The notes beneath the pieces were generated by a model that saw nothing but the letters and a program-made list of their open reading frames with translations, was not told the DNA's origin and searched no databases. Below are positions 25,934 to 53,003 of a stretch of 64,000 nt of DNA, in pieces. The stretch is taken from positions 21,528 to 85,527 of the forward strand of contig WHTQ01000003.1 in the NCBI GenBank assembly GCA_009377645.1, in the 5' to 3' direction. Position numbers and translations under genes: made by a program. Position 1 is the first letter of the stretch. The number at the start of each line of letters is the position of its first letter. The stretch comes from Micromonosporaceae bacterium. GTDB lineage: Bacteria; Actinomycetota; Actinomycetes; Mycobacteriales; Micromonosporaceae.

Positions 25934-26830
25934 CTACCTCCCGCTGAGCCTCGTCCAGCCGGCGTAGTGCTGGGGCGTCACGGGAAAAGCACTTCGGCGG
26001 CGGGCGCGTACCGCCTTCCCTATGCCATCCGCGGCGTGCGCGACCGTGTCCAGGCGCAGACGCCGCAACCTCGGGGTGGTCATCGACACCGAGATCGCAG
26101 CGATGGCCGCGCCCGCCTCGTCGAGGATTGGGGCGGCGACACAGGCCACCCCCGGCACCGCCTCTTCCATGTCGTATGCCAGCTTGGTCTTGCGGATATT
26201 CCGGAGCTGACTGACCAGCATGCCCGGAGCTGTGACCGTACGTCGGGACAGCGGAGTCAGACCGCGCGAAACCACCGCGCGAAACGAGTCGGGGGACGAG
26301 AACGCCAGCATCGCCTTGCCGAGTGCGGTGCAGTAGGCGGGCATTCGGCCGCCTGGGAAAGTCGGGAGCACAATACCGTCGTGGCCGCGGACCCGATCGA
26401 TGTAGAGCACTTCCTCGGCATCAAACCAGGCGAGCTGAATGGTTTCCTTGGTAACGCTGTAGAGGTCTTGCATGTATGGCATGGCGAGGTCGCGAAGCAC
26501 CCGCTGCGCCCACACGGCGCCGGACAGCTCGAACAGGCACAGGCCCAACCGATAACGCTTGCCGCTGCGCTCGAGTGCCCCGACTGCCATCAGCTGGGCG
26601 GCGAGCCGGTGCACGGTGCCCTTCGGCAGTCCGGTCCGCTTGACTAGATCGGCGAGGGCGAGCTCTTCGGAGTCGCGGATGAAGCAAGCTAGGAGCACGA
26701 AGGCGCGGGCGATGACCGAGGTCTCCACCTCAACCATGGATTGCCCCGCCTGTGAATCGAGGTCGGGTGCGGGCCGGACATTGGCACTTGACGTCCGGAC
26801 AGACATCGCGCCACCCCCTACGGTGAGCAA
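25934..26830 (-). CDS. IclR family transcriptional regulator
   Basis: wHTH (LALADLVKRTGLPKGTVHRLAAQLMAVGALER) plus an IclR effector domain. Start uncertain (Met9 or Met32 possible). Confidence 0.85.
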   Translation of the reverse strand: MLTVGGGAMSVRTSSANVRPAPDLDSQAGQSMVEVETSVIARAFVLLACFIRDSEELALADLVKRTGLPKGTVHRLAAQLMAVGALERSGKRYRLGLCLFELSGAVWAQRVLRDLAMPYMQDLYSVTKETIQLAWFDAEEVLYIDRVRGHDGIVLPTFPGGRMPAYCTALGKAMLAFSSPDSFRAVVSRGLTPLSRRTVTAPGMLVSQLRNIRKTKLAYDMEEAVPGVACVAAPILDEAGAAIAAISVSMTTPRLRRLRLDTVAHAADGIGKAVRARRRSAFPVTPQHYAGWTRLSGR

Positions 26831-26998
26831 CTAGCCCAGTACTCGACGTCCGATGACGACACCGTTGATCTGTGATCTTAGCTTGGCGGAGCCAATCACA
26901 CTAGCCACCCGAATGGCTGGATCGGATGACTCAGACGTCTTGAGCCGGTCAGGCGGGCACCCACATGGCGAAAAGGTCGCGGATCAGATCGTCGCGGA

Positions 26999-27994
26999 TC
27001 AGATCAAGGCGGTTACCGCGGGGTTGCGTACCGGTTCGGCGTAGAGATCCTCGAAGATCCCGGCGTTGTCGAGCTCTCGTAGCAGGCTGAGGTCCCACGG
27101 CTCCAGCGGATCGATCCGGCTCGCCTCCGGGTCCTTCGCCACGTCGAGGCGGTAGACGTTCCAGATCGCGAGCGGGTGCGGATATGGCTTGACGTTCAGC
27201 AGCCCGGCCCAGGCGCTCTGTAGATAGGCGATGTCCTCGTCCTGGGTGATCCCTATGGCCGGCGCGACATTGGCGGCCAAGATCTCGCGGACCCGCTCCG
27301 GCTGGGTCTTGAAGAAGTGGACCGCTTCCACCATCGACCACAGGAACGAGCGTGTCAGTTCGCGGTTCTCGTCGACCCAGTCGATCCGGGAGCAGATCGT
27401 CACGTTGTGGATAACAGGAACCGGGGGAAGCTCCAGGACGGACAGCCCTCGGCGACGTGCGACGTTATCGAACGGCAGGTCCACTGCGGCGCCAACCGCC
27501 GCACCGCTCTCGACTGCATCGATCGCCCAGCCGAACGACTCGGAGCGGGGACGGTCGCCGCCGGAGAAGTCGATAGCCTCAACGCGGGCGCCCGCAATCC
27601 GCAGCGCCTCGCGGAGGTTTCCGACCACGCACGGCGCCTGGCTCGACACCACGACCTTTCCGCCCTCCAGCTGGCGCGGGTCGGTGATCCCGGCGGCCAC
27701 GACAAGCCGGTCGTCCCAGTCGTTCTGCGCCTGGGCGAGGTAGACAAAGCCCTTGTCCCCGCTGGCACGCGACGTATAGGGCTCGTGGTGTAGTCCGCTG
27801 AGAAAGGCGTAGGCGCCGCTGCGCAGTAGTTCGGCGCGGTCCTGCATACGCCGCGCCTCGCGTCCGTTCAGCGTCCACTCCGCGACGTCGATGTCCAGCT
27901 TGATGCCGTGCCGCTCGGCGGCACCAGAGTCTCGCCACACCGACCACAACGGCATGTGCGACATTGCGCTGACCAGGACTCTCACAGTCTCCAT
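26999..27994 (-). CDS. NMT1/THI5-like (SsuA/TauA-fold) protein without signal peptide
   Basis: 331 aa, periplasmic-binding-protein type 2 fold-like, with no leader or lipobox. This contrasts with the paralogous lipoprotein at 49999..51003. Confidence 0.6.
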   Translation of the reverse strand: METVRVLVSAMSHMPLWSVWRDSGAAERHGIKLDIDVAEWTLNGREARRMQDRAELLRSGAYAFLSGLHHEPYTSRASGDKGFVYLAQAQNDWDDRLVVAAGITDPRQLEGGKVVVSSQAPCVVGNLREALRIAGARVEAIDFSGGDRPRSESFGWAIDAVESGAAVGAAVDLPFDNVARRRGLSVLELPPVPVIHNVTICSRIDWVDENRELTRSFLWSMVEAVHFFKTQPERVREILAANVAPAIGITQDEDIAYLQSAWAGLLNVKPYPHPLAIWNVYRLDVAKDPEASRIDPLEPWDLSLLRELDNAGIFEDLYAEPVRNPAVTALI

Positions 27995-28012
27995 CGGATC
28001 TCCTATACGTCG

Positions 28013-28966
28013 TCACTCGAAGGAGGGCAGCTTCTTGCCGTCCAGGTGCTGTTCGATCAGGTTGGCCGCAGCCGTTGCGAACGCCTCATATGACCGGTCA
28101 GTGATCCAGCCGATGTGCGGAGTGAGCACTACGTTCGCCCGACGCAGTGGATGCGACCGGGGAAGCGGCTCTCGATCGAACACGTCCAGCCCAGCACCAG
28201 CAAGCTGCCCGGACGTGAGCGCTGCCAGCAGCGCATCCTCGTCAACGACCGGGCCGCGGGCGCTGTTGAGCAGGTACGACCCTCGTGGCATCGCCGCGAT
28301 AAGGTCACGATCGACTAGACCTCGAGTCTCGTCCGTCAGCGCGCAATGCACCGAGAGCACATCGGAGCTGGCCGCCAGCTCGGGCAGGGGCAGGACCTTC
28401 ACTCCCTCGGCGGCGCGGCGGCCGGCGAGCAGCGACGGGCTCCATGCGGCGACCGACATGCCGAACGCTGTCGCGAGCCTGCCGACCTCCCGGGCGACCG
28501 CTCCGAAGCCGACCAGGCCCAACCGCATCCCGGATAGCGTGCGCCCCATCGGCTTGGGCCAGTTGCCGGCGCGGATGTCGGCGTCCAGCCGTGTGATCAA
28601 GCGGGTGGCCGCGATCAGCAGCCCGATGGTTAGCTCCGCGGTGCTCTGTGCCGAGGCTCCCTCGGCCCGGGCTACTGTGATCCCGAGGTCCCGGGCGGCC
28701 GCGAGGTCGACGTGGTATGCCTTGCTGCCGGTCTGCACGATCAGCTTCACCCGGTCGAGCCGGCGCAGGAAGTCGGCGGGGAACTGGGTCCGCTCCCGGG
28801 TCGCGACCAGCACGTCGAAGCCGGCCAGCCGCTCGGGGTCCTCGACGTGCCGGTCGAGCACCGTCACCGACTCGACCCCGGCCAGGCCCCGCAGCGCAGC
28901 CACCCCGGCCGACCGCTCGTACACGCGGTGAACGTCGTCGAGGAACGCGATCCGCAGGCCGCTCAC
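28013..28966 (-). CDS. D-isomer-specific 2-hydroxyacid dehydrogenase (NAD-binding)
   Basis: GLVGFGAVAREVG dinucleotide fold, NSARGPVVDE, and TPHIGW. The GTG at 28966 overlaps the amidase stop (GTGA). Confidence 0.85.
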   Translation of the reverse strand: MSGLRIAFLDDVHRVYERSAGVAALRGLAGVESVTVLDRHVEDPERLAGFDVLVATRERTQFPADFLRRLDRVKLIVQTGSKAYHVDLAAARDLGITVARAEGASAQSTAELTIGLLIAATRLITRLDADIRAGNWPKPMGRTLSGMRLGLVGFGAVAREVGRLATAFGMSVAAWSPSLLAGRRAAEGVKVLPLPELAASSDVLSVHCALTDETRGLVDRDLIAAMPRGSYLLNSARGPVVDEDALLAALTSGQLAGAGLDVFDREPLPRSHPLRRANVVLTPHIGWITDRSYEAFATAAANLIEQHLDGKKLPSFE

Positions 28967-30354
28967 GACGCGACCCCCGAAACCGGCGAGGACAACCGGC
29001 CGGCCCAATCGTCCGCACGGGTCACCCGCGCCGCGACCGCGAGAGTCAGCTCGTCGCACCTGGGCGCAGCGACCAGCTGTGCGCCGATCGGGAGCCCCAC
29101 AACCGACCGGCCGGACGGAATGCTGACCGCGGGCAGGCCGAGCAGGCTGGCCGGAATTTGCAGGCTGCGATCACCGGTTGTCTCCCGCGTCGGGGCGACG
29201 CCAGCGACGCTGGGCAGCAACCAGACGTCCACTTCGGAGAATGCGGCGAGCACCTCGGCAGCCAGCCGCCGCCGCAGGCGCTGCGCGTCCAGGTAGTCGC
29301 GACCGCGCACTTCCCGCCCCGCTAACACCGCCTGGGCGATCTTTGTGCGGTAGTGAGTGGGGTGTTCCGCATACCCGCGGGCGTGCACCGCGCTGATCTC
29401 GGCGCTCATCGTGACCTGGTGCACGGCCGCGATGTCCGCCAGCCGGCCCAGCCGGACGGAGACCAGCTCGGCGCCGCCGGCCGCCAGGATCCGCCCCAGG
29501 CCGGCGACGCTGTCGGCGACCTCATCGGTGGCCAGTTCGAACGCGTCTTCCACCAGACCGACCCGGATCCGCGCATCCCGGGTGGCTGCCGCTACCGCGC
29601 CGCCCGCAGCGACCTGGAAGACGTCGACGCAGGTTTCGACCGTGTCCGCGAGGATGCCCACTTCATCGATCGACCAGGCGAGCGGGAAGACTCCGCCCAG
29701 CGGCAGTCGGCCACGGCTCGGCTTGAAACCCACGATCCCGGTGTACGCGGCCGGCCGGATCGTCGATCCAGAGGTCTGGGTGCCTAGCGCGGCCGGGACA
29801 TGGCCGACGGCGACGGCGACCGCCGAGCCGCTGCTGGAGCCGCCGGGGGTGCACTCGACGTTCCAAGGGTTGACCGATGCGGCCGGGTCAGAGAACGCGA
29901 ACTGCGTGGTGACGGTCTTGCCGACCACGATCGCACCGGCCGTGACCAGCCGGTCCACCACCGGGGCGTGTCCGGTCGGCACCTGGTTGGCGAACGGCGC
30001 GAAGCCGGCCGTGCATGGCATCCCGGCGACGTCGATGACATCCTTCACCCCGATCGGCAGCCCCTCCAGCCGACCCGCCGGTCGCCCCCCGGCCAGCTCC
30101 GTCTCCGCCACCTCGGCCCGCGCCAACGCGCCCGCCCGGTCCACATAGGTCCAGGCACGCCACCGCTGATCGGACTTCTCGATCGCGGCCAACGCTCGCG
30201 CGACCGCCCCGGGTCCTGGACTCGCGTTGCCGCCGGAGCGGGTAGGCGCCGCCACGATCTCGAGACAGTCCGATGCCGCGGGGTCGGGCGTGGGTCGGTC
30301 AGACGGTCCAAGCCTAGCGGTGCGGACCAGGCGGACCGCCTCGGCGAGCGACAT
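28963..30354 (-). CDS. Amidase-signature (AS) family amidase
   Basis: GGSSSGSAVAVA...GTQTSGSTIRPAAYTGIVGFKPS signature. Start uncertain (Met at 30354, or a codon up to 30405). Confidence 0.85.
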   Translation of the reverse strand: MSLAEAVRLVRTARLGPSDRPTPDPAASDCLEIVAAPTRSGGNASPGPGAVARALAAIEKSDQRWRAWTYVDRAGALARAEVAETELAGGRPAGRLEGLPIGVKDVIDVAGMPCTAGFAPFANQVPTGHAPVVDRLVTAGAIVVGKTVTTQFAFSDPAASVNPWNVECTPGGSSSGSAVAVAVGHVPAALGTQTSGSTIRPAAYTGIVGFKPSRGRLPLGGVFPLAWSIDEVGILADTVETCVDVFQVAAGGAVAAATRDARIRVGLVEDAFELATDEVADSVAGLGRILAAGGAELVSVRLGRLADIAAVHQVTMSAEISAVHARGYAEHPTHYRTKIAQAVLAGREVRGRDYLDAQRLRRRLAAEVLAAFSEVDVWLLPSVAGVAPTRETTGDRSLQIPASLLGLPAVSIPSGRSVVGLPIGAQLVAAPRCDELTLAVAARVTRADDWAGRLSSPVSGVAS

Positions 30355-30421
30355 CGCCCCCGGCGAGAGCGGGTCGCCGGGTCGCGCCTCGGTCGGCCCG
30401 CTCACGAGGCCGACTTTCGCA

Positions 30422-31807
30422 CTAGGCTGCACCCCCGGGGAGCAGGCGCCACAAGTCCCGCACATCGGCCAGGTCTTCCAGCGAGCGGACCGTGGCGATC
30501 ACCCGCTGGGCAGTGTCCGAGTCGACCGGGACCGCGCCCTGCCGGAGCGCGTCGAGGAACTTGTCCTCGACATCACCGGTAGGTAGCGGCTGCCCGGGCG
30601 ACCCGCGCGGCTTGGCCGGGCGCAGCAGCCGCTCGGTGCCGTCGGCCAACCGCACGGCGATCTCCTCGACTCCGTCTCCGGCGTCGTCCACCTCATCGAA
30701 GTCGATGCGGTCGGCCAGCTCCCGGGCCACCGGGTCCGCGATCCCCGTCGGAGTAAGGTCGCTGAGCCGTACCGTACCGGCGGTGAAAGCCTTGGCGAGA
30801 GCGTATTGCAGGCTGTTGCTCGCGGCGGCGCCGTTCGCCGGGCGGCGGCGGGCCTCCTGCGGTGTGGCCCACGGGCGCAGCCACTCCGGGCCGCGCACTG
30901 TCACTCGCGCGATCTCGGCGGCCGGAGAACCCGCCCGCCATTGCACGACCGCCTCTATGAACGGATGCAGCAGGCCGCTGGTTGGCCACAACTTGAACCG
31001 TGACTCCAGCAGGCGGTACTCCGTGCCCAGCCCGTTGACCAGAGCAGAGTTGTCGGTCAGCGAGCCCCCGTAGTAGTACGGGTAGACGCCCGCCTTCCCG
31101 CCGAAGACGTCCATGTTGGCCCGCAGCCCGGCCCTGGCCAGCGAGGCGGCGAGCAGACCCCCGTGGTTCGCAAAGCCACCGTATGCCGCCTTTGCGGGGA
31201 CGTCGCCACCGAGCACCACCTCCATGGTCCCGGCGGCCTGCATGAGTGCAAGCCCGATGGCGTCGTGTACGCCGTCGGCGTCCAGGCCCAGCACCGCCGC
31301 ACTGGCCGCCGCCGCGCCGAAGTACCCGAGCAGCTGCCCTTCCAGCAGCCGCGGGTGAACGCCGCCGACCCCACTGGCCGCGTCCCGGGCCGCGGCAGCC
31401 ATCCGGCTCATCAGCTCAGCACCGGCGGTGACCGCCGCGATGTACTCCTCGCCGCTGACCTTGCCGCGTAACTCGGCCGCCGCCGACGGGGCGGCGAAGG
31501 TGACCACGCCGAGGTGTGCCCCGAACGGGCCTACCATGTCGAAGTTGAGCGCGTGGCTGGTGGCGCCGTTGACCAGCGCCGCGCCGAGTGGGCTCAGCCC
31601 CACCCCGAATCCGGCAGCTGGCATGCTCCCTGCGCCCCCGGCCTCCCTGCCCGCGCGCAGCACGGCGGCTGCCCCATCGCCGAGGCTGCTACCCGCCACA
31701 GCCGTGCAGAGGGAGTCCAGGATGGATAGCTTGACTCGCTCCCGAGCCTCGATCGGGATGTCCGGATAGGAGAGGTCGGCGACGAACTCGTACAGCGGGT
31801 GGCTCAT
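30422..31807 (-). CDS. MmgE/PrpD family protein (paralog 1)
   Basis: 461 aa with the typical N-terminus (FVADLSYPDIPIEARERVKLSILDSLCTAVAGS). Its ATG overlaps the stop of the upstream paralog (ATGA). Confidence 0.85.
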   Translation of the reverse strand: MSHPLYEFVADLSYPDIPIEARERVKLSILDSLCTAVAGSSLGDGAAAVLRAGREAGGAGSMPAAGFGVGLSPLGAALVNGATSHALNFDMVGPFGAHLGVVTFAAPSAAAELRGKVSGEEYIAAVTAGAELMSRMAAAARDAASGVGGVHPRLLEGQLLGYFGAAAASAAVLGLDADGVHDAIGLALMQAAGTMEVVLGGDVPAKAAYGGFANHGGLLAASLARAGLRANMDVFGGKAGVYPYYYGGSLTDNSALVNGLGTEYRLLESRFKLWPTSGLLHPFIEAVVQWRAGSPAAEIARVTVRGPEWLRPWATPQEARRRPANGAAASNSLQYALAKAFTAGTVRLSDLTPTGIADPVARELADRIDFDEVDDAGDGVEEIAVRLADGTERLLRPAKPRGSPGQPLPTGDVEDKFLDALRQGAVPVDSDTAQRVIATVRSLEDLADVRDLWRLLPGGAA

Positions 31808-33162
31808 TGCGCGAACACCCTGGTTCCAGTGAATACGGAGACATCGGGGAGGGTCTCGACGTCCCGGAGCCGGCCGAAGGCCAGGGCGGCCTGCTCGGGA
31901 CTGATGCCCCGGGCGGCTATCAGGCGGGTGAACTTGTCCCGCAGAACCTCCCAGCTGATCGGGTCGGCTGGGCTGCCGGGCGTGGTCTCGACCTTCTCCA
32001 CCGCCCGGGTGCCGTCCTTGCGGGTGATCGTGACGACAGCCTGGTCGGTGCCGAGCCGGTCGCTGGCCGTGACGCTGATCCGCCCGAACAGCTCCCGTAC
32101 CTCCGGTCTGGACCTGACGAACTCAGCCGAGTAGGCGGTCACGTCGCGGCCGTGGCCCTGGCAGGTAAGGGCGACAAGCGTACGGATGCTGAACTTTACG
32201 TCGTGGTCGGAGTGCAAGCTGTCCTTACCGGTCAGCTCGACCACCAGCGGATGCACCAGCAGCTCAACACTGTCGATATCGGACGCCAGCGTGCCGTTTC
32301 CAAGCAGCCGCTCGGTGCCGGCGAGCGCAGGGTGCGACACGACCCCGCACGGGTACGGCTTGATCCCGTTGCCCAGCATCTCCCAGGTCGAGCCCAGCCC
32401 GTCGACCAGCGCCCCGGGCTCGGGAACATCACACATGACCCGCCAGAACCCGACCCGGCCCTCGATTCCGGCTGGGTCCGCGTCGAAGCCCTGCTGGGCG
32501 AGGAGCGCGGCGACCAGGCCGTTGCGACCGGCGTTGCCGGAGTTGACCGGCTTGGCGTTCGAGCCGAAGTGCTGCCGGTGCCCGCTGCCGGTGTTCGCGG
32601 CATGTGCCACGGCCATCGTCAGCGTGGGAGCGTCGGACTCGAGCAGCCGGGACGCCGCGACCGCAGCGCCGATCCCGCCGGTCGAGCCGGTGATGTGCCA
32701 GCCCCGGCTGTAGTGTTCGGTCGGCATCGATCTGGCGACCCGGGCGGCCACCTCGAAGCCGGCCAGGTACGCGGTCAGCAGCTTCTCACCCGTGACCGCA
32801 CCTGAGCCGTCCGCGACCGCGAGCGCCGCCGCGAGGGTCGGGTTGGAACCGTGCAGAATCGTCACCCAGTGGGTGTCGTCGTAGTCGAGCGCGTGCCCGG
32901 AGATGCCGGACAGCCACGCTGCCGACGCCCACGAGACCGCCCGGTCGATGCCGACCGGCCGCACGACGCCGGTGCCCTCGGTACGGGCCACCACCGCCTG
33001 CGCCCGGACCGACGGGTCGGAGTCGACCCCGCCAAGCATCACCCCGACGGTGTCCACCACGCCCTGGATGGTGCGTTCGCGCACCGGCGTCGGCACGTCA
33101 GACCAACGCAGCTCCCGCGCGAACCGCAGCAGCCCCGCCACCGCGCCACGTTCATCTAACAC
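31804..33162 (-). CDS. MmgE/PrpD family protein (paralog 2)
   Basis: GLLRFARELRWSDVPTPVRERTIQGVVDTVGVMLGG. I chose the GTG at 33162 (RBS GGGGAA), because the longer ORF overlaps the LigB gene. Confidence 0.8.
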   Translation of the reverse strand: MLDERGAVAGLLRFARELRWSDVPTPVRERTIQGVVDTVGVMLGGVDSDPSVRAQAVVARTEGTGVVRPVGIDRAVSWASAAWLSGISGHALDYDDTHWVTILHGSNPTLAAALAVADGSGAVTGEKLLTAYLAGFEVAARVARSMPTEHYSRGWHITGSTGGIGAAVAASRLLESDAPTLTMAVAHAANTGSGHRQHFGSNAKPVNSGNAGRNGLVAALLAQQGFDADPAGIEGRVGFWRVMCDVPEPGALVDGLGSTWEMLGNGIKPYPCGVVSHPALAGTERLLGNGTLASDIDSVELLVHPLVVELTGKDSLHSDHDVKFSIRTLVALTCQGHGRDVTAYSAEFVRSRPEVRELFGRISVTASDRLGTDQAVVTITRKDGTRAVEKVETTPGSPADPISWEVLRDKFTRLIAARGISPEQAALAFGRLRDVETLPDVSVFTGTRVFAQ

Positions 33163-34903: not shown

Positions 34904-35148
34904 GAACTGCCTCCCTCTCCGCCGCCTAGCTCCGCAGGGGCGTCTATCCGGATGTGATTGAGGATTTCTTCCAGGGTCGACTCGGGGAGCCGGGCCAGGG
35001 CCTCGACCTGCAGCGGGTCGAGGAACAGCTCCAAACCCGCCGGCTCGCAGAACAGCCGCAGCCGGTCGCCGTTGCCGTCGCTATCCACGCTGGCCCTGAT
35101 CACCGCGAACTCGCCGCGTAGGTGGAGCACTGGCTGATAGGTACTCAT
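34900..35148 (-). CDS. Hypothetical 82-aa protein
   Basis: It lies between the dioxygenase beta subunit and the hydrolase, with a 4-nt overlap with the hydrolase start. I recognise no family. Confidence 0.5.
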   Translation of the reverse strand: MSTYQPVLHLRGEFAVIRASVDSDGNGDRLRLFCEPAGLELFLDPLQVEALARLPESTLEEILNHIRIDAPAELGGGEGGSS

Positions 35149-38231: not shown

Positions 38232-38234
38232 GGG

Positions 38235-44394: not shown

Positions 44395-44812
44395 CTGAGT
44401 TCCTCGTTCTATCGCTCTTCAATGGAACATCTGGGCTTGGACCCGTAGGCTCCGGCGCCCTCCACCAACCGGCTGCCGAGAGATTGGCAACGACACCGCT
44501 CCCATGGCGTCGACTCCGGCGTCGGGCCATGCACAAGGGTCCCGACCTGTCCGATCGGTATTCGTCTCTAGGTACGGGGCCCATAGGGCATACTCCGCTT
44601 TGACGGGCCGCCTGGACGGGCGGGCCGCAGCGTCGCATATGCTGCCATCAGGCTAGGACCGCGCTTCGCTATACATGAAGAGCGGCGTACCGATCAGTGG
44701 AACTAAAAGCAGCCCGCCTGCGCCGGCCGGATCCCGCTAACTGAGAATGCCCGGTGATCGACCAGGCTGTGACCAACAGCGCCCGCAGGACCGGTAGGAG
44801 ACACGCAAGAGC

Positions 44813-45451: not shown

Positions 45452-46941
45452 CGGGACGCATTCTCTGCGCCCGGGTGGCCTCCGCCTGGCCCGACCTGCC
45501 GTTGGCCGGTACCGAAGCCCCGCAACAGCTCATCCCACCGCTGTGCCACCCGCAGCCGCGCCTGCGGGGGGAACACGTTGCTGTGCGGAAAGTCCTCCCG
45601 CCAGTGGAATGGCCGGCACGCATCCACCAGCAGCCGCCCCATCGTATGGTCGCCGGCCGCCAGCTGCTGCGGCGACAGCCGCGGGTCGAGGGTGGTGGTC
45701 CATGCGCCCCGAATCACGTCGATCGACGTGGCCGGGTCAGCGCGGGTACACATCGCCCAGACCACCTGCTCCAAACTGGTCACGTCGATGTCGTCGTCGA
45801 CCGCCACGTAGTAGCGGTACATGCTGGCGCCACTGCGAAAACCTGACGCGGCGAGCAGGGCCTGCTTGGCATGGCCGGCGTACCGCTGCTTGACGCTGAC
45901 CACGATCATCAGCGTCTTGCAGAACCCCCACACCCCGGTCACGTCGGTGATCCCGGAGCGGTCCAGGTGGTCCCAGAGCTCAAGCGTGAACGACGGGATC
46001 GCCACACTGTCGCTGTCGCCGAGCGGGCGCAGCGGCGGCGTGCCGAGCAAGATCGGCCGTTCCCGGTGATAGATCGTGTCCACGGTCATCACCGGCTCGT
46101 TCCCTTCATGCGAGTAGTAGCCGGGCCACTCGCCGAACGGCCCCTCGTACGCGGTGTCCAGCTCCGGCGACGGGATTCGCCCCTCCAGCACGATCTCGGC
46201 GTGCGCGGGCACCGGAAGGCCACTCGCCGGCAGGTTCACCACCTCTAGCGGGCTGCCCCGGAAGGCGCCGGCCAGCTCGTACTCGGAGGTGCCGAAGGGG
46301 GCTGCCATCGCGGCCGTCATCCAGGTCGCCGGGTCGCAGCCCAGTACCACCGCGATCGGGGCTTCCCGGCCGGCGGCCCAATGCTTCTCCAGGATCATCC
46401 GGCCGTGCTTGGCGGCCAGGATCCACAGGCTCATCCGGTTGCGCCCTTGGATCATGCCTCGGTAGACGCCGACATTGACCCAGCCCCGATCCGGATCCCG
46501 CAGCACGACCATGTCGGCGGTGCCGATGTACCGGCCGCCGTCCCGCTCATGCCACTTTGGCGTCGGAAACGCGTCCAGGTCGACCTCGTCGCCTACCTGC
46601 CGGCTAGCGAGGACGGGACCGTCGGAGGCCACCGCGGGAGGCAGCGGCCCGCTGAGCTGCCGACGCCGTACTCGCCACTGGGCCAGCATGTCCAGCGGGT
46701 GGGCGTCGAGCGGCAGATCGAAGGCAACGCCGAACCGCCGGGTAGTGCGCAGCGGGTTGGCCGCGACCCGGTGCCCCTCCGGGAGGCCATCGAACCGGTC
46801 GAATACCAGCATCGGGCCGCGCGCCTCGGCGGCCAGCTCGGTCAGCACGCCGACCTCCTCGTCCAGCGAGGCGCCGTCGACGAACGCCGCCTCACCGACC
46901 TCGGCGCAGGCGCCGATGAACGCTTCAAGCGAGTCCTGCAT
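45448..46941 (-). CDS. UbiD family (prFMN-dependent) decarboxylase, copy 2
   Basis: UbiD fold, with FGEWPGYY. I prefer the start at MQDSLEAF (46941, RBS GGGGGAGA). The Met at 46974, which overlaps the MFS stop, is the alternative. Confidence 0.85.
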   Translation of the reverse strand: MQDSLEAFIGACAEVGEAAFVDGASLDEEVGVLTELAAEARGPMLVFDRFDGLPEGHRVAANPLRTTRRFGVAFDLPLDAHPLDMLAQWRVRRRQLSGPLPPAVASDGPVLASRQVGDEVDLDAFPTPKWHERDGGRYIGTADMVVLRDPDRGWVNVGVYRGMIQGRNRMSLWILAAKHGRMILEKHWAAGREAPIAVVLGCDPATWMTAAMAAPFGTSEYELAGAFRGSPLEVVNLPASGLPVPAHAEIVLEGRIPSPELDTAYEGPFGEWPGYYSHEGNEPVMTVDTIYHRERPILLGTPPLRPLGDSDSVAIPSFTLELWDHLDRSGITDVTGVWGFCKTLMIVVSVKQRYAGHAKQALLAASGFRSGASMYRYYVAVDDDIDVTSLEQVVWAMCTRADPATSIDVIRGAWTTTLDPRLSPQQLAAGDHTMGRLLVDACRPFHWREDFPHSNVFPPQARLRVAQRWDELLRGFGTGQRQVGPGGGHPGAENASR

Positions 46942-46970: not shown

Positions 46971-48299
46971 TCATGATCGCTTTCCGGTCCGCGGATCGGC
47001 TCGGACCCGGCGGCCGGACCGCTCGCGGGTGGCTCTCGCCACCGCCAAGGCCGCCGCTGCCACGACCACCCCTGTGCCGACCAGCGCCCAGGTAAGCGTG
47101 GTGACGCTGGCCAACGTGGAGTCGACCAGGGCGGCCAGCGGACGGGAGCCGAGGAAGAAGACGCCCCACAGTGCCATCACCCGCCCGCGCAGGTGCTCCG
47201 GCACATCGAGCTGCATCGAGGTGGTCAGCGCGGTGATCGCGAAGAAGTAGCCGACACCACCGACGGCCAGAGCGGCGCTGCCGGTCAGCAGCTCCGGCGC
47301 AACGCCGAGCACACCGATCATCAGTGCAAGCGTGGTCAGGCCAAGCACGCCAGTAGCGCGGTAGCCGATCCGGACGTTGACCCGGCGGACGAACAGCATC
47401 GCCAGCACCGCCCCGCCGCCGTACGCGCCGGCGAGGATGCCGACCGCGAGCTCAACGTTGTCGACCTTGAGCGGACCGCCGCCGGCCATCAGATCGTGGG
47501 CGAGCAGTGGCACCAGCGTGATCACCGGGTCACTGCCGTACCCGGCGGCGGCGATGCCGACCAGCATCGCGAGCATCCGCTTGTGCGCCCAGACGTAGCG
47601 GATGCCGGCGGTGAAGCCGCGGTGGGCGACCCCCGCCCTGGCACCGGCGCCATGCGGCCCGCTGTCCGGCTCGGCCCGGAGCGGCTTGATCACCGCCAGC
47701 GCGGCGACGAACAGCAGGTAGGAGGCGGCGACTGCCACGAAGACAGCGATCGGCCCCAGCGAAAGCAGGAGCAGGCCGCTCAGTGCGGGTCCGAGGGTCC
47801 GCCCGAGGTTGAACGTCACCGTGTTGAGCGCCACGGCCTGACCCAGGTCGGCGGTGGGCACCAGGGCGGCGACCAACGCGTGCCGGGCCGGGTCGGTGAC
47901 CGCCAGCGCTATGCCGAAGCCGAGCGACATCAGCAGTACCGGCCATGGGTTGGTGATCCGGTCCTGGCCGACCAGTGCTCCCCATGCCGCCAACCCCGAA
48001 ACCGCCACCCCAGCGCAGGCCAGCGCAACCATCATCAGCTTACGTCGATCGAACCGGTCGGCCAGCGCGCCCCCCACGGGGGCGAGCACGACCGGGGCGG
48101 TGAACTGCATGATGGTGACCAGCCCGACGTAGAAGGCGGATCCGGTGATCTGGAAGATCAGCACGACTGCGCCGACGTTGTAGGCCCAGACGCCGGTGTT
48201 CGAGACGACGTTGCCCCAGAAGTACGGCCCGAAGTTCCGGTCAAGCAGCAGCGCCCAGGAGCTACGCGACCCGCTGACCGTGCCCACCAACCGACCCAC
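46971..48299 (-). CDS. MFS transporter (MFS_3/EntS-like)
   Basis: About 12 TM helices, with LLDRNFGPYFWGNVVSNTGVW typical of this subfamily. Start uncertain (GTG 48299, TTG 48290 or GTG 48287). Confidence 0.75.
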   Translation of the reverse strand: MGRLVGTVSGSRSSWALLLDRNFGPYFWGNVVSNTGVWAYNVGAVVLIFQITGSAFYVGLVTIMQFTAPVVLAPVGGALADRFDRRKLMMVALACAGVAVSGLAAWGALVGQDRITNPWPVLLMSLGFGIALAVTDPARHALVAALVPTADLGQAVALNTVTFNLGRTLGPALSGLLLLSLGPIAVFVAVAASYLLFVAALAVIKPLRAEPDSGPHGAGARAGVAHRGFTAGIRYVWAHKRMLAMLVGIAAAGYGSDPVITLVPLLAHDLMAGGGPLKVDNVELAVGILAGAYGGGAVLAMLFVRRVNVRIGYRATGVLGLTTLALMIGVLGVAPELLTGSAALAVGGVGYFFAITALTTSMQLDVPEHLRGRVMALWGVFFLGSRPLAALVDSTLASVTTLTWALVGTGVVVAAAALAVARATRERSGRRVRADPRTGKRS

Positions 48300-48304
48300 C
48301 CACC

Positions 48305-49093
48305 CTAGGTGAGATAGCCACGAGCCTGGAACAGCCCGTGAATCTGCGAAACGTACGCGTTGAACTCGGGGGTCACCTGCAGTCCCGGCGATCTTGGGTG
48401 GGGCAGGTCGATGTCGACGATCCGCTCGATTCGTCCCGGCCGCGGGGTCATCACCGCCACCCGGTCGCTGAGGAACACCGCCTCGGCGATCGAGTGTGTG
48501 ATGAACAGGACCGACTTGCGCTGCTCGTACCACAGCCGGTGCAGATCCAGCATGAGCTGCTCGCGCGTCATCGTGTCGAGCGCCCCAAACGGCTCGTCCA
48601 GCAACAGGATGCTCGGATCGTGTACGAGCGCCCGGCAGATCGAGACCCGTTGCTTCATGCCACCGCTGAGCTGGCGAGGATAGGCGTTCTCGAAGCCGGT
48701 CAGCCCCACCCGGCGGAGCAGATCCCCGGCCCGCGCCCGATGCGCGTCGTCGAGCAGCTTGCGCCCCTCAAGCTGGATCAGCACGTTGCCCATCACCGTG
48801 CGCCAGTCGAGCAGCAGCGCGTCTTGGAACGCGACGCCGGGGAGGGTCTGCGGTCCCCGGACCGGCGTACCCTCGACCAGCACCTCGCCGCCGGTGCTCG
48901 TCAGCAGCCCGGAGGCGATCATCAACATTGTGGACTTACCGCAGCCGGAGGGGCCGACAAGCGAGACGAACTCCCCGTCCCGGATGTCCAATGACACGCC
49001 GCAGAGCGCCTCGACTATCCGCTCGGGGGACCGGTAGACCTGCGAGACGTCCCGGAACGAGATGGCGTCGGGCGTTTCCGATGCAGTAGTCAC
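48305..49093 (-). CDS. ABC transporter ATP-binding protein (NitT/TauT family)
   Basis: Walker A GPSGCGKST, signature LSGGMKQR, Walker B LLLDEPFGALD. The GTG at 49093 overlaps the permease stop (GTGA). Confidence 0.9.
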   Translation of the reverse strand: MTTASETPDAISFRDVSQVYRSPERIVEALCGVSLDIRDGEFVSLVGPSGCGKSTMLMIASGLLTSTGGEVLVEGTPVRGPQTLPGVAFQDALLLDWRTVMGNVLIQLEGRKLLDDAHRARAGDLLRRVGLTGFENAYPRQLSGGMKQRVSICRALVHDPSILLLDEPFGALDTMTREQLMLDLHRLWYEQRKSVLFITHSIAEAVFLSDRVAVMTPRPGRIERIVDIDLPHPRSPGLQVTPEFNAYVSQIHGLFQARGYLT

Positions 49094-49929
49094 AGCAACT
49101 TCTCCCGTTCCCGCGCCTGGGTCTCGTGCCACGGAATGGAGAACCGCTCGACCACCTCGATGAGCCAGAAGAGCAGGACGCCGATCAGGGCGATGATGAT
49201 GATCGCGCTGAACGTGGTCGGGGTGTTCAGCGCGCTCGTGCTGATCAGGATCAGTGCGCCGAGGCCGGCTTCGGCACCGATGAACTCGCCCACGACCGCG
49301 CCGATCACGGCGAGCGTCATACCGACCTTGAGCCCGCCGAACACCGACGGCAGCGAGCTCGGAAATCGGATCTTGATGAACAGCTGGACCCAGGACAGGC
49401 CCATCACCCGACCAAGGTTGATCATGTTCTGCCCGATCCCCTGCAGCCCCACGATCGTGGCGACGGTGATCGGAAAGAACGCGATCAGCGCGGTGGTCGC
49501 GATGATCGGGGCGACCCCGAAGCCGAGCCAGACCACCAGCAGCGGGGCGATCGCCACCTTCGGGATTGCCTGCAGCATGACGATGATCGGATAGATCGCC
49601 CGCTCGATCGCCCGGCTGGAGACCATCGCGACGGCCAGCGTCAAGCCGAACCCGACGGCGATCGAATAGCCCACCGCCACCTCCGTCACGGTGGCCCGAG
49701 CATGCACCAGCAAGTCACGCCAGTCTTCGACCAGCGTCTCGGCGACCGCCCCGGGGCCGGGAAGGAGGAACTCTTCGATGTCGAGAACCGTCACGACGGA
49801 GTGCCAGATCAAGACCAACCCGGCGAACTCGAGCAGGATGAACAGGCTCCGGCGCAGCCGGGCGCCCCGGAACCGAACCTTGGTCGACCGGGCCAGAGAT
49901 GACGGAGCCTCTGCCACGTCGGTCGTCAC
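49090..49929 (-). CDS. ABC transporter permease (NitT/TauT family)
   Basis: Six TM helices and an EAA-like loop, adjacent to the cognate ATPase and SBP. Confidence 0.85.
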   Translation of the reverse strand: MTTDVAEAPSSLARSTKVRFRGARLRRSLFILLEFAGLVLIWHSVVTVLDIEEFLLPGPGAVAETLVEDWRDLLVHARATVTEVAVGYSIAVGFGLTLAVAMVSSRAIERAIYPIIVMLQAIPKVAIAPLLVVWLGFGVAPIIATTALIAFFPITVATIVGLQGIGQNMINLGRVMGLSWVQLFIKIRFPSSLPSVFGGLKVGMTLAVIGAVVGEFIGAEAGLGALILISTSALNTPTTFSAIIIIALIGVLLFWLIEVVERFSIPWHETQAREREKLL

Positions 49930-49998
49930 GGCTTCCTCCCGAAGCGTTGAAGGGTCGAGCGTCCGCCGGGCTGGCCGCGCCGGACGGGCGGCGCGGAC

Positions 49999-51003
49999 TC
50001 AGTCAACCGGTTCGATGAACTCGTTGGTGTAGTAAACGTCGAGCGGCTGCGGAGACTCGAGGTCGCCGGACTGCACCAGCACGTCGACCGTGGCCTGCCA
50101 GACCTCATCGGACATCTGGCCGAGCGGTTTCCCCACCATCTCGTTGACCGTGGTGATCACCTTGATGGGATCCTGGTAGGCGGATATACCGTCGGGGAAG
50201 TACTTCTCTACCGAGTCGACCGCGAACTGGTGCTCGGTCAGCGAGTCGTTGAGCCCGCGCAGGAAGGCGCGGACGATGCCCCGCACCTCGTCGGGGCTCT
50301 CCTCGATCTTGCTCTCCGTGGTGACCAGACCGGAGCCGATGGTTCCTACGCCGTAGTCGGCGTAGGCCAGCCAACCCGCGTCGGGCATGTCCTCGCGGAC
50401 CCGCACCAGGTTGGTGTAGGACGCTCCGGAGGCCGCGTCCACGTCGCCGCTGAGCAACGCGGTCACAGTCGCCCGGCCAGACACTGACACTATCTCCACC
50501 TTGGACTCATCGATGCCGTTGAGGCTTACGAATGGGCTCCAGAGCAGGCGCGACGCGCCGGCCGACGGCAGGGCAAGCTGCTTGCCCTCCAGGTCCTTCG
50601 GCGTGCTTATACCGCTGTCCGGGGCAGTCATGATCCCGAACGCGTTGACCTGCCGGTTCGCCGCGACCGCGCGCAGCCCCAGGCCCTCCTGCGCCGCCAG
50701 CGGCACGTCGTCCATGGATCCGAACAGATAGTCGTTCTGGCCAGTGGCCACAAGTACAGTGGGTTCGACGTTGCCGCCCTGGACGATCTCCACGTCGTAC
50801 CCCTCGTCGCGGAAGTAGCCCTTCTCCAAAGCCACGAAGGCCGGGGAGTACTCAGGGCTGGCGGTAAAGCCGAGCACGATGCTGACCTTCGTCAGCTCCC
50901 CGCTCGCCGGATCGTTCTCCGCGTCACCCCCGCCACCGCACGCGGCGGCGAGGAGGGAAGCAGCTGCCATACTCGCAGCGAAGCGCAATGGACGTTTCCT
51001 CAT
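49999..51003 (-). CDS. ABC substrate-binding lipoprotein (NMT1/SsuA/TauA-like)
   Basis: Lipobox LLAAAC and an NMT1-like fold. Confidence 0.85.
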   Translation of the reverse strand: MRKRPLRFAASMAAASLLAAACGGGGDAENDPASGELTKVSIVLGFTASPEYSPAFVALEKGYFRDEGYDVEIVQGGNVEPTVLVATGQNDYLFGSMDDVPLAAQEGLGLRAVAANRQVNAFGIMTAPDSGISTPKDLEGKQLALPSAGASRLLWSPFVSLNGIDESKVEIVSVSGRATVTALLSGDVDAASGASYTNLVRVREDMPDAGWLAYADYGVGTIGSGLVTTESKIEESPDEVRGIVRAFLRGLNDSLTEHQFAVDSVEKYFPDGISAYQDPIKVITTVNEMVGKPLGQMSDEVWQATVDVLVQSGDLESPQPLDVYYTNEFIEPVD

Positions 51004-51012
51004 ACCGGACTC

Positions 51013-52104
51013 CTATGTCTGACCCGGTCGACGGGCATCCCCACGGACGCCCGTTTCTTGTTCCTCTAGCAGCTCCAGGGCCACGGAGACGATCATGTCC
51101 TCCTGCCCACCGACGTATCCCTCCTCGCCGACCCGGGTGAGGATCTTGTGCGCCGGCACGCCGTACCGCTCGGCGGCGCGTTCGGCGTGCAGCAGGAACG
51201 AGGAGTAGACCCCGGCGTAGCCCTGCACGATCGAGGGCCGATCCATGACCGGCATCCGGGGAATGTACGGACGTACGACCTCCTCGGCGGCGGCGAGGGT
51301 ACGTTGCACATCGACACCGGTTGGCACACCGAGCCGGTCGAACACCGCGGCCAGTACCTCGGTGGGCGAGTTGCCCGCGCCCGCGCCCAGCGCGCAGAGT
51401 GCTCCGTCGAGTTGGCGCGCTCCCGCCTCGTAGGCGAGCACGGAGTTGGCCACCCCGAGCGACATGTTCTGGTGGCCATGGAAGCCAACCTCAGCGTCCC
51501 GGCCGACTTCGGCGACCAGCGCCTGCACCCGCTCTTGGGTGTCTGAAAGCATCAGCGCACCGGCCGAGTCCACAACGTAGACACATTGGGCGCCGGCGTC
51601 CACCATGATCCGGGCCTGCTTGGCCAGAGTCGACGGGCTCGCCCGGTGACTCAACATCAGGAAACCCACCGTCTCCAGACCCAGGTCCCGCGCCACCCCG
51701 AAGTGCTGGACCGAGATGTCCGCCTCAGTGCAATGGGTCGCGATACGCACCACCGACATCCCGGCATCGGCCGCGCCGCGCATGTCCTCGACCGTGCCGA
51801 CACCTGGAAGCAGCAGGCATGCGATCCGAGCCGAGTGCGCCTCCTCCCGGGCGGCGCTAATCAACAGCAGCTCGTCCTGCCGGGAGAAGCCATAGTTGAA
51901 ACTTGACCCACCCAACCCGTCGCCGTGGGTCACTTCGACCAGCTCCACGCCGGCCGCGTCCAGCGCGTGCACCGTCGAGCGGACCTGCTCCTCAGTGAAC
52001 TGGTGCGCCATCGCGTGGCTGCCGTCACGCAGGGTCGAGTCGGTGATTCGCAGCGACGGACGGGAAGGCCCGGAACCGACGTCGCCCGTCACATCCCCAC
52101 TCAT
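51013..52104 (-). CDS. 4-hydroxy-2-oxovalerate aldolase (DmpG/MhpE/BphI type)
   Basis: [17 protein letters not shown] and [13 protein letters not shown]. It overlaps the upstream gene stop by 4 nt. Confidence 0.9.
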
Positions 52105-53003
52105 CCCACCGTCCCCCGCTTCCGTTTCGCGAGCATGTCACCCACCCGAGCTGCCGCCGCGGTCATGATGTCAAGATTGCCGGCATAGGTCGGCAGGTGG
52201 TCCCCATTGCCACGGACCTCGAGAAACACCGCCACCCGGGCATCGCCGTTCCATCGTGGATCCGGATCGTCGAACTGCGGCTCAGCCCGCAGCATGTAGC
52301 CCGGGACATACTCCCGCACTGCCTCCACCATGGCCAGGACGCTCTTCGCGATAGCCTCCCGGTCGTGCTCTGCGGGCAAAGAACAGTAAACCGTGTCACG
52401 CATGATGACCGGCGGCTCCGCCGGGTTCAGTATGATCACCGCCTTGCCCCAACGAGCACCGCCCACCACTTCGATCCCCCGCGCGGTGGTCGCCGTGAAC
52501 TCATCGATGTTCGCCCGCGTACCGGGACCCGCCGAACGGGAAGCGATCGACGCGACGATCTCGGCATACTTGACCTCAGCCACGCGGCTGACCGCCGCCA
52601 CAACTGGAATGGTCGCCTGACCCCCGCAGGTGATCATATTTAGGTTCGGCTGGTCCTGGTACTCATCCAGGTTCACCACCGGCACTACAAACGGGCCCAC
52701 CGCCGCAGGAGTCAGGTCAACCACCTGGATACCCGCCCGCCGGTAGCGAGGCGCGTTCGCCGCATGCGCCTGCGCACTCGTCGCCTCAAACACCAACTCG
52801 GGCAGCTCATCCTGACCCAACAGCCAGTCCAACCCGCCCGCGGACGCCTCGACACCGAGTGCGGCAGCCCTACGCAGGCCGTCGGAATCCGGATCGACTC
52901 CCACCATCCACCGAGGCTCGACCCACTCGCTGCGCCGCAGCTTTACCAGCAGGTCCGTACCTATGTTGCCGGGGCCGACAATCGCGGCCCTCACTTTCCC
53001 CAT
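52101..53003 (-). CDS. Acetaldehyde dehydrogenase (acetylating) (DmpF/MhpF/BphJ type)
   Basis: [17 protein letters not shown] and the catalytic [11 protein letters not shown]. Start at the Met at 53003 after GGGAG. Confidence 0.9.

Follow-up and report, generated by a model that had tools for sequence, protein, structure and literature searches.

A 27-gene actinobacterial cluster joining two UbiD enzymes, a split thiamine pyrophosphate decarboxylase and a Rieske dioxygenase: a candidate route for N-heteroaromatic acid catabolism

Gene content, layout and composition

Here we describe a candidate catabolic gene cluster on a 64,000-nt stretch of a Micromonosporaceae genome (GenBank assembly GCA_009377645.1, contig WHTQ01000003.1, positions 21,528 to 85,527), referred to below as the window and numbered from its own first base. 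Analysis of open reading frames (ORFs) and of frame-specific GC content identified 27 co-directional genes on the minus strand between 25,934 and 53,003, all of them with the coding pattern GC3 > GC1 > GC2 (GC content at third, first and second codon positions), in line with an earlier model-made reading of the bare sequence (the original prediction). Pfam agrees with the function named there for each gene, in the case of orf331 through the profile of its relatives. In order of transcription, the cluster comprises the following features.

52101..53003, minus strand: acetaldehyde dehydrogenase (acylating), DmpF/MhpF type, 300 aa (AcetDehyd-dimer)
51013..52104, minus strand: 4-hydroxy-2-oxovalerate aldolase, DmpG/MhpE type, 363 aa (HMGL-like and DmpG_comm)
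48305..51003, minus strand: NMT1/SsuA-type ABC transporter, with substrate-binding protein (SBP) 49999-51003, permease 49090-49929 and ATPase 48305-49093 (NMT1, BPD_transp_1, ABC_tran)
46971..48287, minus strand: MFS_3 (EntS-like) transporter, about 438 aa (PF05977, PF07690)
45448..46941, minus strand: UbiD copy 2, PhdA-clade decarboxylase dependent on prenylated flavin mononucleotide (prFMN), 497 aa (best PDB match 7PDA)
44813..45451, minus strand: UbiX flavin prenyltransferase, 212 aa (Pfam Flavoprotein)
44395..44812, minus strand: UbiX-TctC intergenic gap, 418 nt
41111..44394, minus strand: tripartite tricarboxylate transporter, with TctC 43312-44394, TctA 41707-43230 and TctB 41111-41710
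39982..41090, minus strand: two-subunit thiamine pyrophosphate (TPP) decarboxylase, with alpha 40581-41090 (169 aa) and beta 39982-40584 (200 aa)
38459..39958, minus strand: UbiD copy 1, prFMN decarboxylase, 499 aa (three UbiD domains)
37032..38456, minus strand: ferredoxin 38235-38456 (Fer4_13/Fer4_15) and ferredoxin reductase 37032-38231 (Pyr_redox_2 and Reductase_C)
35155..36917, minus strand: Rieske dioxygenase, with alpha 35661-36917 (Rieske and Ring_hydroxyl_A) and beta 35155-35664 (Ring_hydroxyl_B)
34900..35148, minus strand: conserved 82-aa protein, orf82 (no Pfam match)
34079..34903, minus strand: C-C (meta-cleavage-product) hydrolase, HsaD/BphD/MhpC type, 274 aa (Abhydrolase_1)
33182..34066, minus strand: LigB-superfamily extradiol dioxygenase, MhpB-like, 294 aa (Pfam LigB)
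30422..33162, minus strand: MmgE/PrpD-family pair (Pfam), PrpD_A 31804-33162 and PrpD_B 30422-31807
28963..30432, minus strand: amidase-signature amidase, about 489 aa (Pfam Amidase, GGSS motif)
28013..28966, minus strand: D-isomer-specific 2-hydroxyacid dehydrogenase, 317 aa (Pfam 2-Hacid_dh)
26999..27994, minus strand: leaderless (cytoplasmic) NMT1/THI5-like protein, orf331, 331 aa
25934..26737, minus strand: IclR-family regulator, 267 aa from ATG 26737, longest ORF to 26830 (HTH_IclR and IclR_C)

With starts refined against orthologues, 4-nt overlaps occur at 10 of the 26 junctions. Ortholog length set the start of the IclR gene at ATG 26,737 (267 aa) rather than TTG 26,830 and was also used to refine that of the MFS_3 gene; the acetaldehyde dehydrogenase starts at ATG 53,003, as noted earlier. 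Gaps of more than 100 nt separate UbiX from TctC (418 nt), the ferredoxin reductase from the Rieske genes (114 nt) and orf331 from IclR (261 nt from ATG 26,737). The predicted 418-bp gap is thus exact (418 nt, 44,395-44,812), but the accompanying claim that gaps elsewhere stay within about 170 bp fails if IclR begins at ATG 26,737; all gaps besides these two are of 114 nt or less.

The UbiX-TctC gap is a possible internal promoter region, and on sequence grounds all three larger gaps could house internal promoters, with co-transcription as a supra-operon as the prediction. A consensus scan of the 418-nt gap found no terminator or sigma-70 promoter, a chance-level result that is uninformative at such GC content, and in sister loci an extra ORF of 66 or 148 aa, which has no counterpart in the window, occupies this position. 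An Rfam scan of the whole window found no family, hence no riboswitch clue to the ligand, while a search for shared operators among the four larger intergenic regions returned only weak GGCTAGTG similarity upstream of the Rieske and IclR genes. A weak shared motif, GG(C/G)TGGCTAGTG, lies in these minus-strand upstream regions at ~36929-36942 (Rieske alpha) and ~26900-26913 (IclR), and may serve as an operator or as a -10-like promoter element.

The cluster differs from its surroundings in composition, with a GC content of 68.0% versus 74.4% in the flanks (locally 65-71% at ~26-53 kb versus 72-78% outside) and a GC3 of 0.867 +/- 0.037 versus 0.922 +/- 0.035 for 25 flanking ORFs (Mann-Whitney p = 6.6e-6), which puts figures on the earlier by-eye impression that third positions here are richer in A/T. 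The shift is uniform over the entire 27 kb. Lateral acquisition, as originally proposed, is plausible on the strength of this lower GC and GC3, but it gains nothing from the surroundings: no tRNA gene was found in the window, no integrase or IS element near the cluster and no significant flanking repeats. At the right edge, where two truncated gene stubs had been noted, there is a single 55-aa ORF (53,253-53,420, plus strand) with no homolog in Pfam or in the plasmid database.

Related loci and the decarboxylases

Metagenome contigs from JGI and Logan (L006-L013) carry orthologues of the cluster's proteins at 54-90% identity, and DNA 97% identical to the window is present in runs ERR14225084 and ERR14225085. 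Two 31-kb JGI contigs contain the entire set in circularly permuted order, D-E-A-B-C against A-B-C-D-E in the window. They begin with TctCAB, TPP alpha/beta, UbiD, ferredoxin, ferredoxin reductase, an inverted PrpD gene, Rieske alpha/beta and the small ORF; continue with hydrolase, LigB, PrpD, amidase, 2-hydroxyacid dehydrogenase, NMT1-like and IclR genes; and end with a 161-aa ORF, an FAA-hydrolase, acetaldehyde dehydrogenase, aldolase, ABC transporter, MFS, 4HBT_3C, UbiD and UbiX. Three members of this set—the FAA_hydrolase-family hydratase, the 161-aa ORF and the 4HBT_3C protein—are missing from the window. In the closest relative (L007 1381-4227; 88-90% protein identity) TctC comes immediately after UbiD copy 2; as no UbiX lies between them, that organism's UbiX must be encoded elsewhere.

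Because co-localisation survives rearrangement, we regard it as good evidence, at the level of sequence, that the genes are functionally coupled, and the expectation that the block would behave as one pathway is supported by the finding of the same genes together elsewhere in another order. It is very unlikely that the block is instead a mosaic of co-oriented independent operons—a meta-cleavage tail, transporters, UbiD/UbiX detoxification and a Rieske cluster—serving unrelated substrates. Separate promoters in the 418-, 261- and 114-nt gaps would suit such a mosaic, as would the recombination of modules among relatives (permuted order, inverted PrpD, a swapped upper module) and the stand-alone UbiD-UbiX pairs seen on Streptomyces plasmids. 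Against it, all five modules stay together despite rearrangement, the ten 4-nt overlaps join genes within and across functional classes, and the compositional shift runs evenly from end to end.

The module swap bears on the chemistry. Loci L012 and L013 retain a core of ferredoxin, ferredoxin reductase, PrpD, Rieske alpha/beta, small ORF, hydrolase, LigB, PrpD, amidase and 2-hydroxyacid dehydrogenase, with a Rieske alpha 80% identical to that of the window. Ahead of this core, in place of the Tct, TPP and UbiD genes, stands a molybdenum (Mo) hydroxylase (L012, 1-5000; L013, 2630-6347), encoded as an 800-aa large subunit and a 157-aa Fer2_2 [2Fe-2S] small subunit together with a 124-aa orphan. 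Since one conserved core follows either upper module, both would deliver a common N-heterocyclic intermediate, and these sequences suggest that it is reached by decarboxylation in one case and by Mo-dependent hydroxylation, a reaction typical of N-heteroaromatics, in the other. Deeper relatives of the Rieske alpha (50-53% identity; L015-L017) are accompanied by two UbiDs, a PrpD_B-like gene, amide hydrolases of other families and either MFS_3 or a Mo hydroxylase, here of three subunits.

Both UbiD copies have UbiD_N, UbiD and UbiD_C domains, exceed the TIGR00148 cut-off of 245 bits (285 for copy 1, 263 for copy 2) and contain the catalytic E-x4-E motif as EGPFGE (residues 265-270 in copy 1), while UbiX, at 260 bits, clears the NCBIfam NF004685 cut-off of 188. 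Copy 2 aligns to 7PDA with 48% identity across 454 aa (E = 2.5e-150, 505 bits), the next characterised enzyme being HudA at 173 bits. 7PDA is PhdA, the phenazine-1-carboxylic acid decarboxylase of Mycobacterium fortuitum (PMC10850782), which also turns over 2,3-dimethylquinoxaline-5-carboxylate (PMC10850782, PMC7591250). Copy 1, which is 34% identical to orthologues of copy 2, likewise ranks PhdA first in the PDB (E = 1e-78), ahead of HmfF and BsdC; its relatives in the genome-contig scan reach 35-37% identity at best. The plasmid database holds relatives of UbiD copy 2 no nearer than 52% and of the Rieske alpha no nearer than 38%. Judged by sequence, copy 2 belongs to the PhdA clade, although the clade alone does not fix the substrate.

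With PhdA the best characterised relative of both UbiDs, a phenazine pathway deserves consideration: the UbiDs would convert phenazine-1,6-dicarboxylate and phenazine-1-carboxylate to phenazine, the amidase having first hydrolysed phenazine-1-carboxamide, and Rieske attack would follow as in M. fortuitum. Two prFMN-dependent enzymes for removing carboxyls suit a dicarboxylated phenazine; the flanking genes and their GC content of 72-78% suggest an actinobacterial host; and phenazine-1-carboxylic acid is broken down by M. fortuitum and Rhodococcus, the carboxamide also by M. fortuitum, with a cluster that includes Rieske dioxygenases and the amidase MFORT_30529 (PMC4626857). However, M. fortuitum requires a pair of ring-hydroxylating and a pair of ring-cleaving dioxygenases (PMC4626857), whereas the window has one Rieske and one LigB enzyme. 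A tricyclic substrate would keep a second aromatic ring for which degrading enzymes are missing. Neither the TPP decarboxylase nor TctCAB would have a role, the amidase resembles hydrolases of small carboxy-amides, and at 48% identity PhdA is more distant than hundreds of environmental homologues. We consider a pathway specific to phenazines unlikely.

The split TPP enzyme has TPP_enzyme_N on its alpha gene and TPP_enzyme_C on its beta gene, and the two genes overlap by 4 nt. It had been called ComDE-like, a label that did not survive: alpha scores 100.3 bits against the TIGR03845 cut-off of 147.95 and beta 81.9 against the TIGR03846 cut-off of 221.5, so that a ComDE-type sulfopyruvate decarboxylase was rejected on both counts. 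A ComDE-type sulfonate metabolism was rejected too, the ABC transporter's SBP also falling below the cut-offs of the sulfonate and taurine models. The best PDB matches are weak (9U8Q, an uncharacterised two-subunit enzyme, and RhiEF, 9IZ3). A closer parallel in architecture is LumK/LumL, a TPP-dependent pair of 20 + 23 kDa that decarboxylates 3-oxo-quinoxaline-2-carboxylate (Sinha et al. 2025, PMC12746152), after which a Mo hydroxylase and a ring-opening Rieske dioxygenase act (PMC12746152). At 169 + 200 aa the window pair has the same rare two-subunit arrangement, with PYR and PP domains on separate chains.

This family is itself rare, with 38 word-index matches, and its members (39-53% identical where neighbourhoods were compared) sit in neighbourhoods of N-heterocycle type. 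One relative (L021) adjoins a Mo hydroxylase; another (L032) keeps company with a Mo hydroxylase, a Rieske alpha, an isochorismatase-type amidase, an Amidohydro_2 protein and an OCD/mu-crystallin-family protein. Five (L029-L031, L034, L035) lie inside NMT1-type ABC operons, two (L018, L033) beside two or three UbiDs and NMT1-like genes, and that of Cucumibacter marinus (L019) after TctC-TctB-TctA and before an amidohydrolase. By this analogy the split TPP enzyme would most probably be a third decarboxylase, with the heterocycle as its target. The proposal that two prFMN enzymes remove carboxyl groups is kept, there being two UbiDs with a UbiX, and refined by this probable third activity. Two of these loci have further genes of their own: a TenA/THI-4/PqqC-family protein and a bicupin in L033 (12464-13597), and in L018 (1955-3883, 12040-16367) three UbiDs, an old yellow enzyme-type reductase, hydantoinase A and an ADP-forming CoA ligase. 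They may be separate heterocycle pathways.

Ring attack, lower genes and a proposed route

All four components of the Rieske dioxygenase are present, and the alpha subunit has intact CxH..CxxH (residue 83) and ExxxDxxHxxxxH (residue 203) motifs. The ferredoxin is of the single-cluster [3Fe-4S]/[4Fe-4S] type and the reductase of the glutathione-reductase type. Alpha misses every equivalog cut-off, with benzoate and anthranilate 1,2-dioxygenases as its best NCBIfam models, and by sequence we assign it to the Hca/Bph/Nah alpha3-beta3 lineage. No cis-dihydrodiol dehydrogenase (short-chain dehydrogenase/reductase or BenD type) was found in the window or in L011-L013, L015 and L017, for which reason we infer an angular or ipso attack.

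Known angular pathways (carbazole car; Terrabacter dbf-fln) place a LigB-type dioxygenase and a C-C hydrolase after the Rieske enzyme and do without a dihydrodiol dehydrogenase; they also have a small ORF beside the LigB gene and, in Gram-positive systems, a [3Fe-4S] ferredoxin. The window departs from them in the lineage of its Rieske alpha, which has no match to CarAa among its PDB matches, and in its 82-aa ORF, which bears no detectable similarity to LigA/CarBa. That ORF is conserved in the same position in L011, L012 and L013 at 51-54% identity; its AlphaFold2 model (predicted local distance difference test score, pLDDT, 62) had no Foldseek match in the PDB with E < 0.4.

The lower genes are more familiar. 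The hydrolase scores 265 bits with the HsaD model and 209 bits with that for BphD, both under cut-off, and has a GNSFG nucleophile elbow; the best NCBIfam and PDB matches of the LigB protein are 2,3-dihydroxyphenylpropionate/cinnamate 1,2-dioxygenases, below the equivalog cut-off. The aldolase (TIGR03217, 477 bits against 286), whose gene overlaps the upstream gene by 4 nt, and the acetaldehyde dehydrogenase (TIGR03215, 448 bits against 282) clear theirs. LigB, hydrolase and DmpFG types together therefore point to a 3-substituted catechol that would yield 2-hydroxypentadienoate.

Between these modules and the regulator lie the amidase, the PrpD pair, the dehydrogenase and orf331. The amidase finds its best PDB match in malonamidase E2 (E = 2e-51) and reaches no equivalog cut-off; it belongs to the core of every close variant, and distant variants have isochorismatase- or asparaginase-type amide hydrolases instead. 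Because of the malonamidase match and the position in the lower module, it looks like a hydrolase of small carboxy-amides that more probably acts on a ring-opening product. The amidase of the original prediction thus stands, but its supposed target, an amide substituent on the substrate, is disfavoured.

PrpD_B, 65-67% identical to its orthologues, is closest in the PDB to IRG1/cis-aconitate decarboxylase and IDS epimerase and not to 2-methylcitrate dehydratase, and a PrpD_B-like gene also lies downstream of the Rieske genes in the distant locus L015. PrpD_A is co-directional with the rest of the cluster in the window, whereas its counterpart is divergently transcribed in all sister loci (e.g. 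L011 8008-9408) and only 37-42% identical, when every other gene is 54-90% identical to its sister counterparts; this suggests gene replacement or rapid divergence. The similarity of the 2-hydroxyacid dehydrogenase to the PGDH, glyoxylate reductase and GhrB models stays under their cut-offs.

The description of orf331 as a leaderless NMT1-like protein holds: alone it has no significant Pfam match (E = 0.17), but 37 of 40 relatives match PF09084, and hhalign pairs its family with that of the cluster's SBP at a probability of 98.7% (E = 1.7e-16) in an alignment that begins past the signal and linker. The family is rare (303 relatives among 1.84 billion representatives) and has an invariant G67-x-H69 within a 'GNH..PY' consensus, a pattern that would be more in keeping with an enzyme than with a binding protein; a single-sequence AlphaFold2 model (pLDDT 37) was unusable.

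As to transport, the SBP of the ABC system has a lipobox-like LLAAAC at its N-terminus, as in a lipoprotein, and TctC (PF03401, 50.6 bits), TctA (PF01970, 440 bits) and TctB (PF07331, 34.6 bits) all exceed their gathering cut-offs. The Tct order C-A-B is atypical (C-B-A in L019 of C. marinus) and is kept in L007, L008 and L011. The IclR regulator resembles the PcaR/PobR and BhcR models, again under cut-offs.

Several of these features would also fit a carbocyclic polycarboxylate, such as a benzene tri- or tetracarboxylate or a carboxylated metabolite of biphenyl or a polycyclic aromatic hydrocarbon, with the amidase, PrpD, 2-hydroxyacid dehydrogenase and NMT1-like genes accessory or unrelated. 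TctC receptors with TctBA permeases import phthalate isomers, as TphC/TpiBA do; UbiDs act on many aromatic acids; the best NCBIfam models of the Rieske alpha concern benzoate and anthranilate; and PcaR/PobR-type IclR regulators are typical of aromatic acid catabolism. The related loci tell against it, with an amide hydrolase retained in close and distant variants alike, the split TPP family at home in N-heterocycle-type neighbourhoods and the Mo-hydroxylase swap favouring an N-heterocycle. Moreover, decarboxylation of an aryl-glyoxylate by the TPP enzyme would give an aldehyde for which the cluster has no matching dehydrogenase. A carbocyclic substrate is in our view improbable.

The reading we prefer, to which we assign a probability of roughly 0.55, is that the 27 genes form a single catabolic cluster for a carboxylated benzo-fused N-heteroaromatic compound (quinoxaline-, quinoline- or phenazine-like) bearing up to three carboxyl groups, the substrate being accordingly an N-heteroaromatic (poly)carboxylate. 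Where an aromatic or N-heteroaromatic polycarboxylate or amide had been proposed, the N-heteroaromatic carboxylate is strengthened by the PhdA clade, the LumKL-type split TPP enzyme and the Mo-hydroxylase swap, and the amide as a substrate substituent is weakened.

Substrate would enter through TctCAB, with the NMT1-type ABC and MFS systems carrying the same or related heterocycles. Three non-oxidative decarboxylations with distinct cofactor-dependent enzymes would follow: the TPP enzyme would remove a carboxyl on the carbon alpha to a ring C=N, as LumK/LumL do, and the two UbiDs, supplied with prFMN by the single UbiX, would remove carboxyls from ring carbons, as PhdA does. The four-component Rieske dioxygenase would then hydroxylate the carbocyclic ring by attacking it at an angular or ipso position beside the ring nitrogen, and re-aromatisation by C-N cleavage would give a 3-substituted catechol with an amide-bearing side chain. 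Carbazole dioxygenase works in a comparable manner, dioxygenating beside the N-bearing ring-fusion carbon with C-N cleavage. A ring-opening dioxygenation with C-N cleavage behaviour is reported for LumABCD (PMC12746152).

From the catechol, the MhpB-like LigB enzyme and the HsaD/BphD-like hydrolase would release 2-hydroxypenta-2,4-dienoate, which the DmpG/DmpF-type enzymes would take to pyruvate and acetyl-CoA with a hydratase that must come from elsewhere. The malonamidase-like amidase would deamidate a small carboxy-amide—maleamate from 2-quinolone or malonamate from oxindole, for example—before the IRG1-like PrpD pair and the D-2-hydroxyacid dehydrogenase act on the product. The IclR protein would regulate the cluster. 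Gene content, protein families and the conservation of the set and its modules underlie this scheme; the order of steps, the angular attack and the substrate class are predictions drawn from them.

Several observations count against this proposal. More than 100 uncharacterised environmental UbiD clusters are nearer to copy 2 (56-63%) than PhdA is (48%), and because of these closer enzymes a PhdA-like substrate specificity is not assured. No N. simplex proteins were recognised among the 38 word-index matches of the split TPP family, and the likeness to LumK/LumL is one of architecture. The Rieske alpha matches the Hca, Bph, Nah and phthalate dioxygenases of the PDB weakly (best E = 1.6e-56, 195 bits), and angular attack is deduced solely from the missing dehydrogenase. 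A 2-oxopent-4-enoate hydratase (FAA_hydrolase family), present in L006 and L011, is absent across the 64-kb window. For the Mo enzyme of the swap variant, aldehyde oxidoreductase activity is conceivable in place of N-heterocycle hydroxylation, and the roles of the two PrpD proteins, the 2-hydroxyacid dehydrogenase, orf82 and orf331 are guesses from family chemistry.

A narrower version of the proposal, which we advance tentatively and think somewhat doubtful, is a new route for a tricarboxylated quinoxaline- or quinoline-type heterocycle in which the TPP enzyme and the two prFMN decarboxylases act in series on one scaffold, followed by an angular, C-N-cleaving Rieske enzyme of Hca/Bph lineage. 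The IRG1-like PrpD pair, the NMT1/THI5-like protein and the 82-aa protein would then gain new catabolic functions. Substrates could be, for instance, quinoxaline-2,x,y-tricarboxylates arising from exhaustive microbial oxidation of flavin/lumichrome or phenazine rings. Pyrroloquinoline quinone, which has three carboxyls of the right type, was rejected as a substrate, for its fully substituted central ring cannot give 2-hydroxypentadienoate for DmpFG.

Comparison with described systems, and the flanks

A full-text literature search combining UbiD, Rieske, PrpD, amidase and meta-cleavage returned no paper, and searches on related themes no matching cluster, as expected from the original prediction, which could match the enzyme combination to no described pathway. 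Of the systems described so far, the lum cluster and the phenazine region of M. fortuitum come nearest, each with one hallmark enzyme type, and both with Rieske and amidase components, in common with the window; most of the other genes differ. We rate the cluster as a probable case of aerobic N-heteroaromatic acid catabolism with several unassigned components, and not as categorically new.

With lumA-Y of Nocardioides simplex (PMC12746152) the window has in common a two-subunit TPP decarboxylase, a four-component Rieske dioxygenase (N-heterocycle-opening in lum), an amidase of ~50 kDa (LumM) and transport genes; a fumarylacetoacetate-hydrolase-family gene of lum recurs in relatives of the window cluster. 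A quinoxaline-type intermediate in both pathways is plausible. Missing from the window, by contrast, are a P450, the pyrimidine-ring hydrolases LumH/I, the xanthine-oxidase-like LumJ (a Mo hydroxylase occurs in the L012/L013 variant only) and the LumE, LumW, LumX and LumY pyrone route. The window adds two UbiDs with UbiX, TctCAB, the LigB, meta-cleavage-product hydrolase and DmpFG enzymes, two PrpDs and the D-2-hydroxyacid dehydrogenase.

The ~40-kb phenazine region of M. fortuitum, an inducible catabolic region, resembles the window in its UbiD/UbiX genes, with a PhdA-clade UbiD (48%), and in its combination of Rieske and amidase genes (Costa et al. 2015, PMC4626857). Two Rieske enzymes are reported for it, along with two dioxygenases that carry the annotation 2,3-dihydroxybiphenyl 1,2-dioxygenase, against one Rieske and one LigB here, and the gene lists consulted mention no split TPP, Tct, PrpD or LigB gene (PMC4626857). 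The window also differs from that region in holding a second, divergent UbiD.

The Hca/Mhp and Bph/Dmp pathways share with the window the MhpB-like LigB protein and the MhpC/BphD/HsaD-like hydrolase, and the aldolase and dehydrogenase are true NCBIfam equivalogs; the window, however, has neither an HcaB-type dehydrogenase nor an MhpD hydratase, and its upstream chemistry is entirely different. ComDE and RhiEF share the split alpha/beta TPP architecture, with weak sequence similarity; the window enzyme differs in scoring under both ComDE equivalog cut-offs and in its catabolic setting, with no coenzyme M or phosphonate genes.

The catabolism of N-heteroaromatic carboxylates (phenazines, quinoxalines, flavin breakdown products, quinoline acids) is poorly mapped. 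PhdA was reportedly first described in 2018. The first TPP-dependent heterocycle decarboxylase was reported in late 2025 (PMC12746152). The window cluster joins PhdA-type and TPP-dependent heterocycle decarboxylation with a second UbiD and a Tct transporter, a combination absent from the literature searched. For biocatalysis it is of interest as a source of two new prFMN (de)carboxylases and one new split-TPP decarboxylase. It also points to unassigned functions of IRG1/PrpD-like proteins and of a rare cytoplasmic NMT1/THI5-like family. If our preferred reading of an N-heteroaromatic carboxylate is true, such clusters would clear redox-active antibiotics or signalling heterocycles from soil.

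The genes on either side are ordinary chromosomal ones, housekeeping or accessory. They comprise intein-containing recA, RNase Y, a MiaB-like gene, a GH5 cellulase, a TetR regulator, an arylamine N-acetyltransferase and a UDG-family gene to the left, and a pyridoxamine-oxidase-like gene, a thioesterase, the Lhr helicase and pirin to the right. The domains Intein_splicing, LAGLIDADG_3 and LAGLIDADG_2 in the recA ORF (16264-19878, minus strand; 1,204 aa) suggest that it holds two inteins or homing endonucleases; the ORF coincides with a local dip in GC content to 66-68% at 16-19 kb. The cellulase (21620-23233, plus strand) is a secreted GH5 enzyme with a CBM2 domain, and adjoining it are the TetR regulator and the arylamine N-acetyltransferase (23597-24998, plus strand); this part of the flank is consistent with a soil actinomycete-like host.

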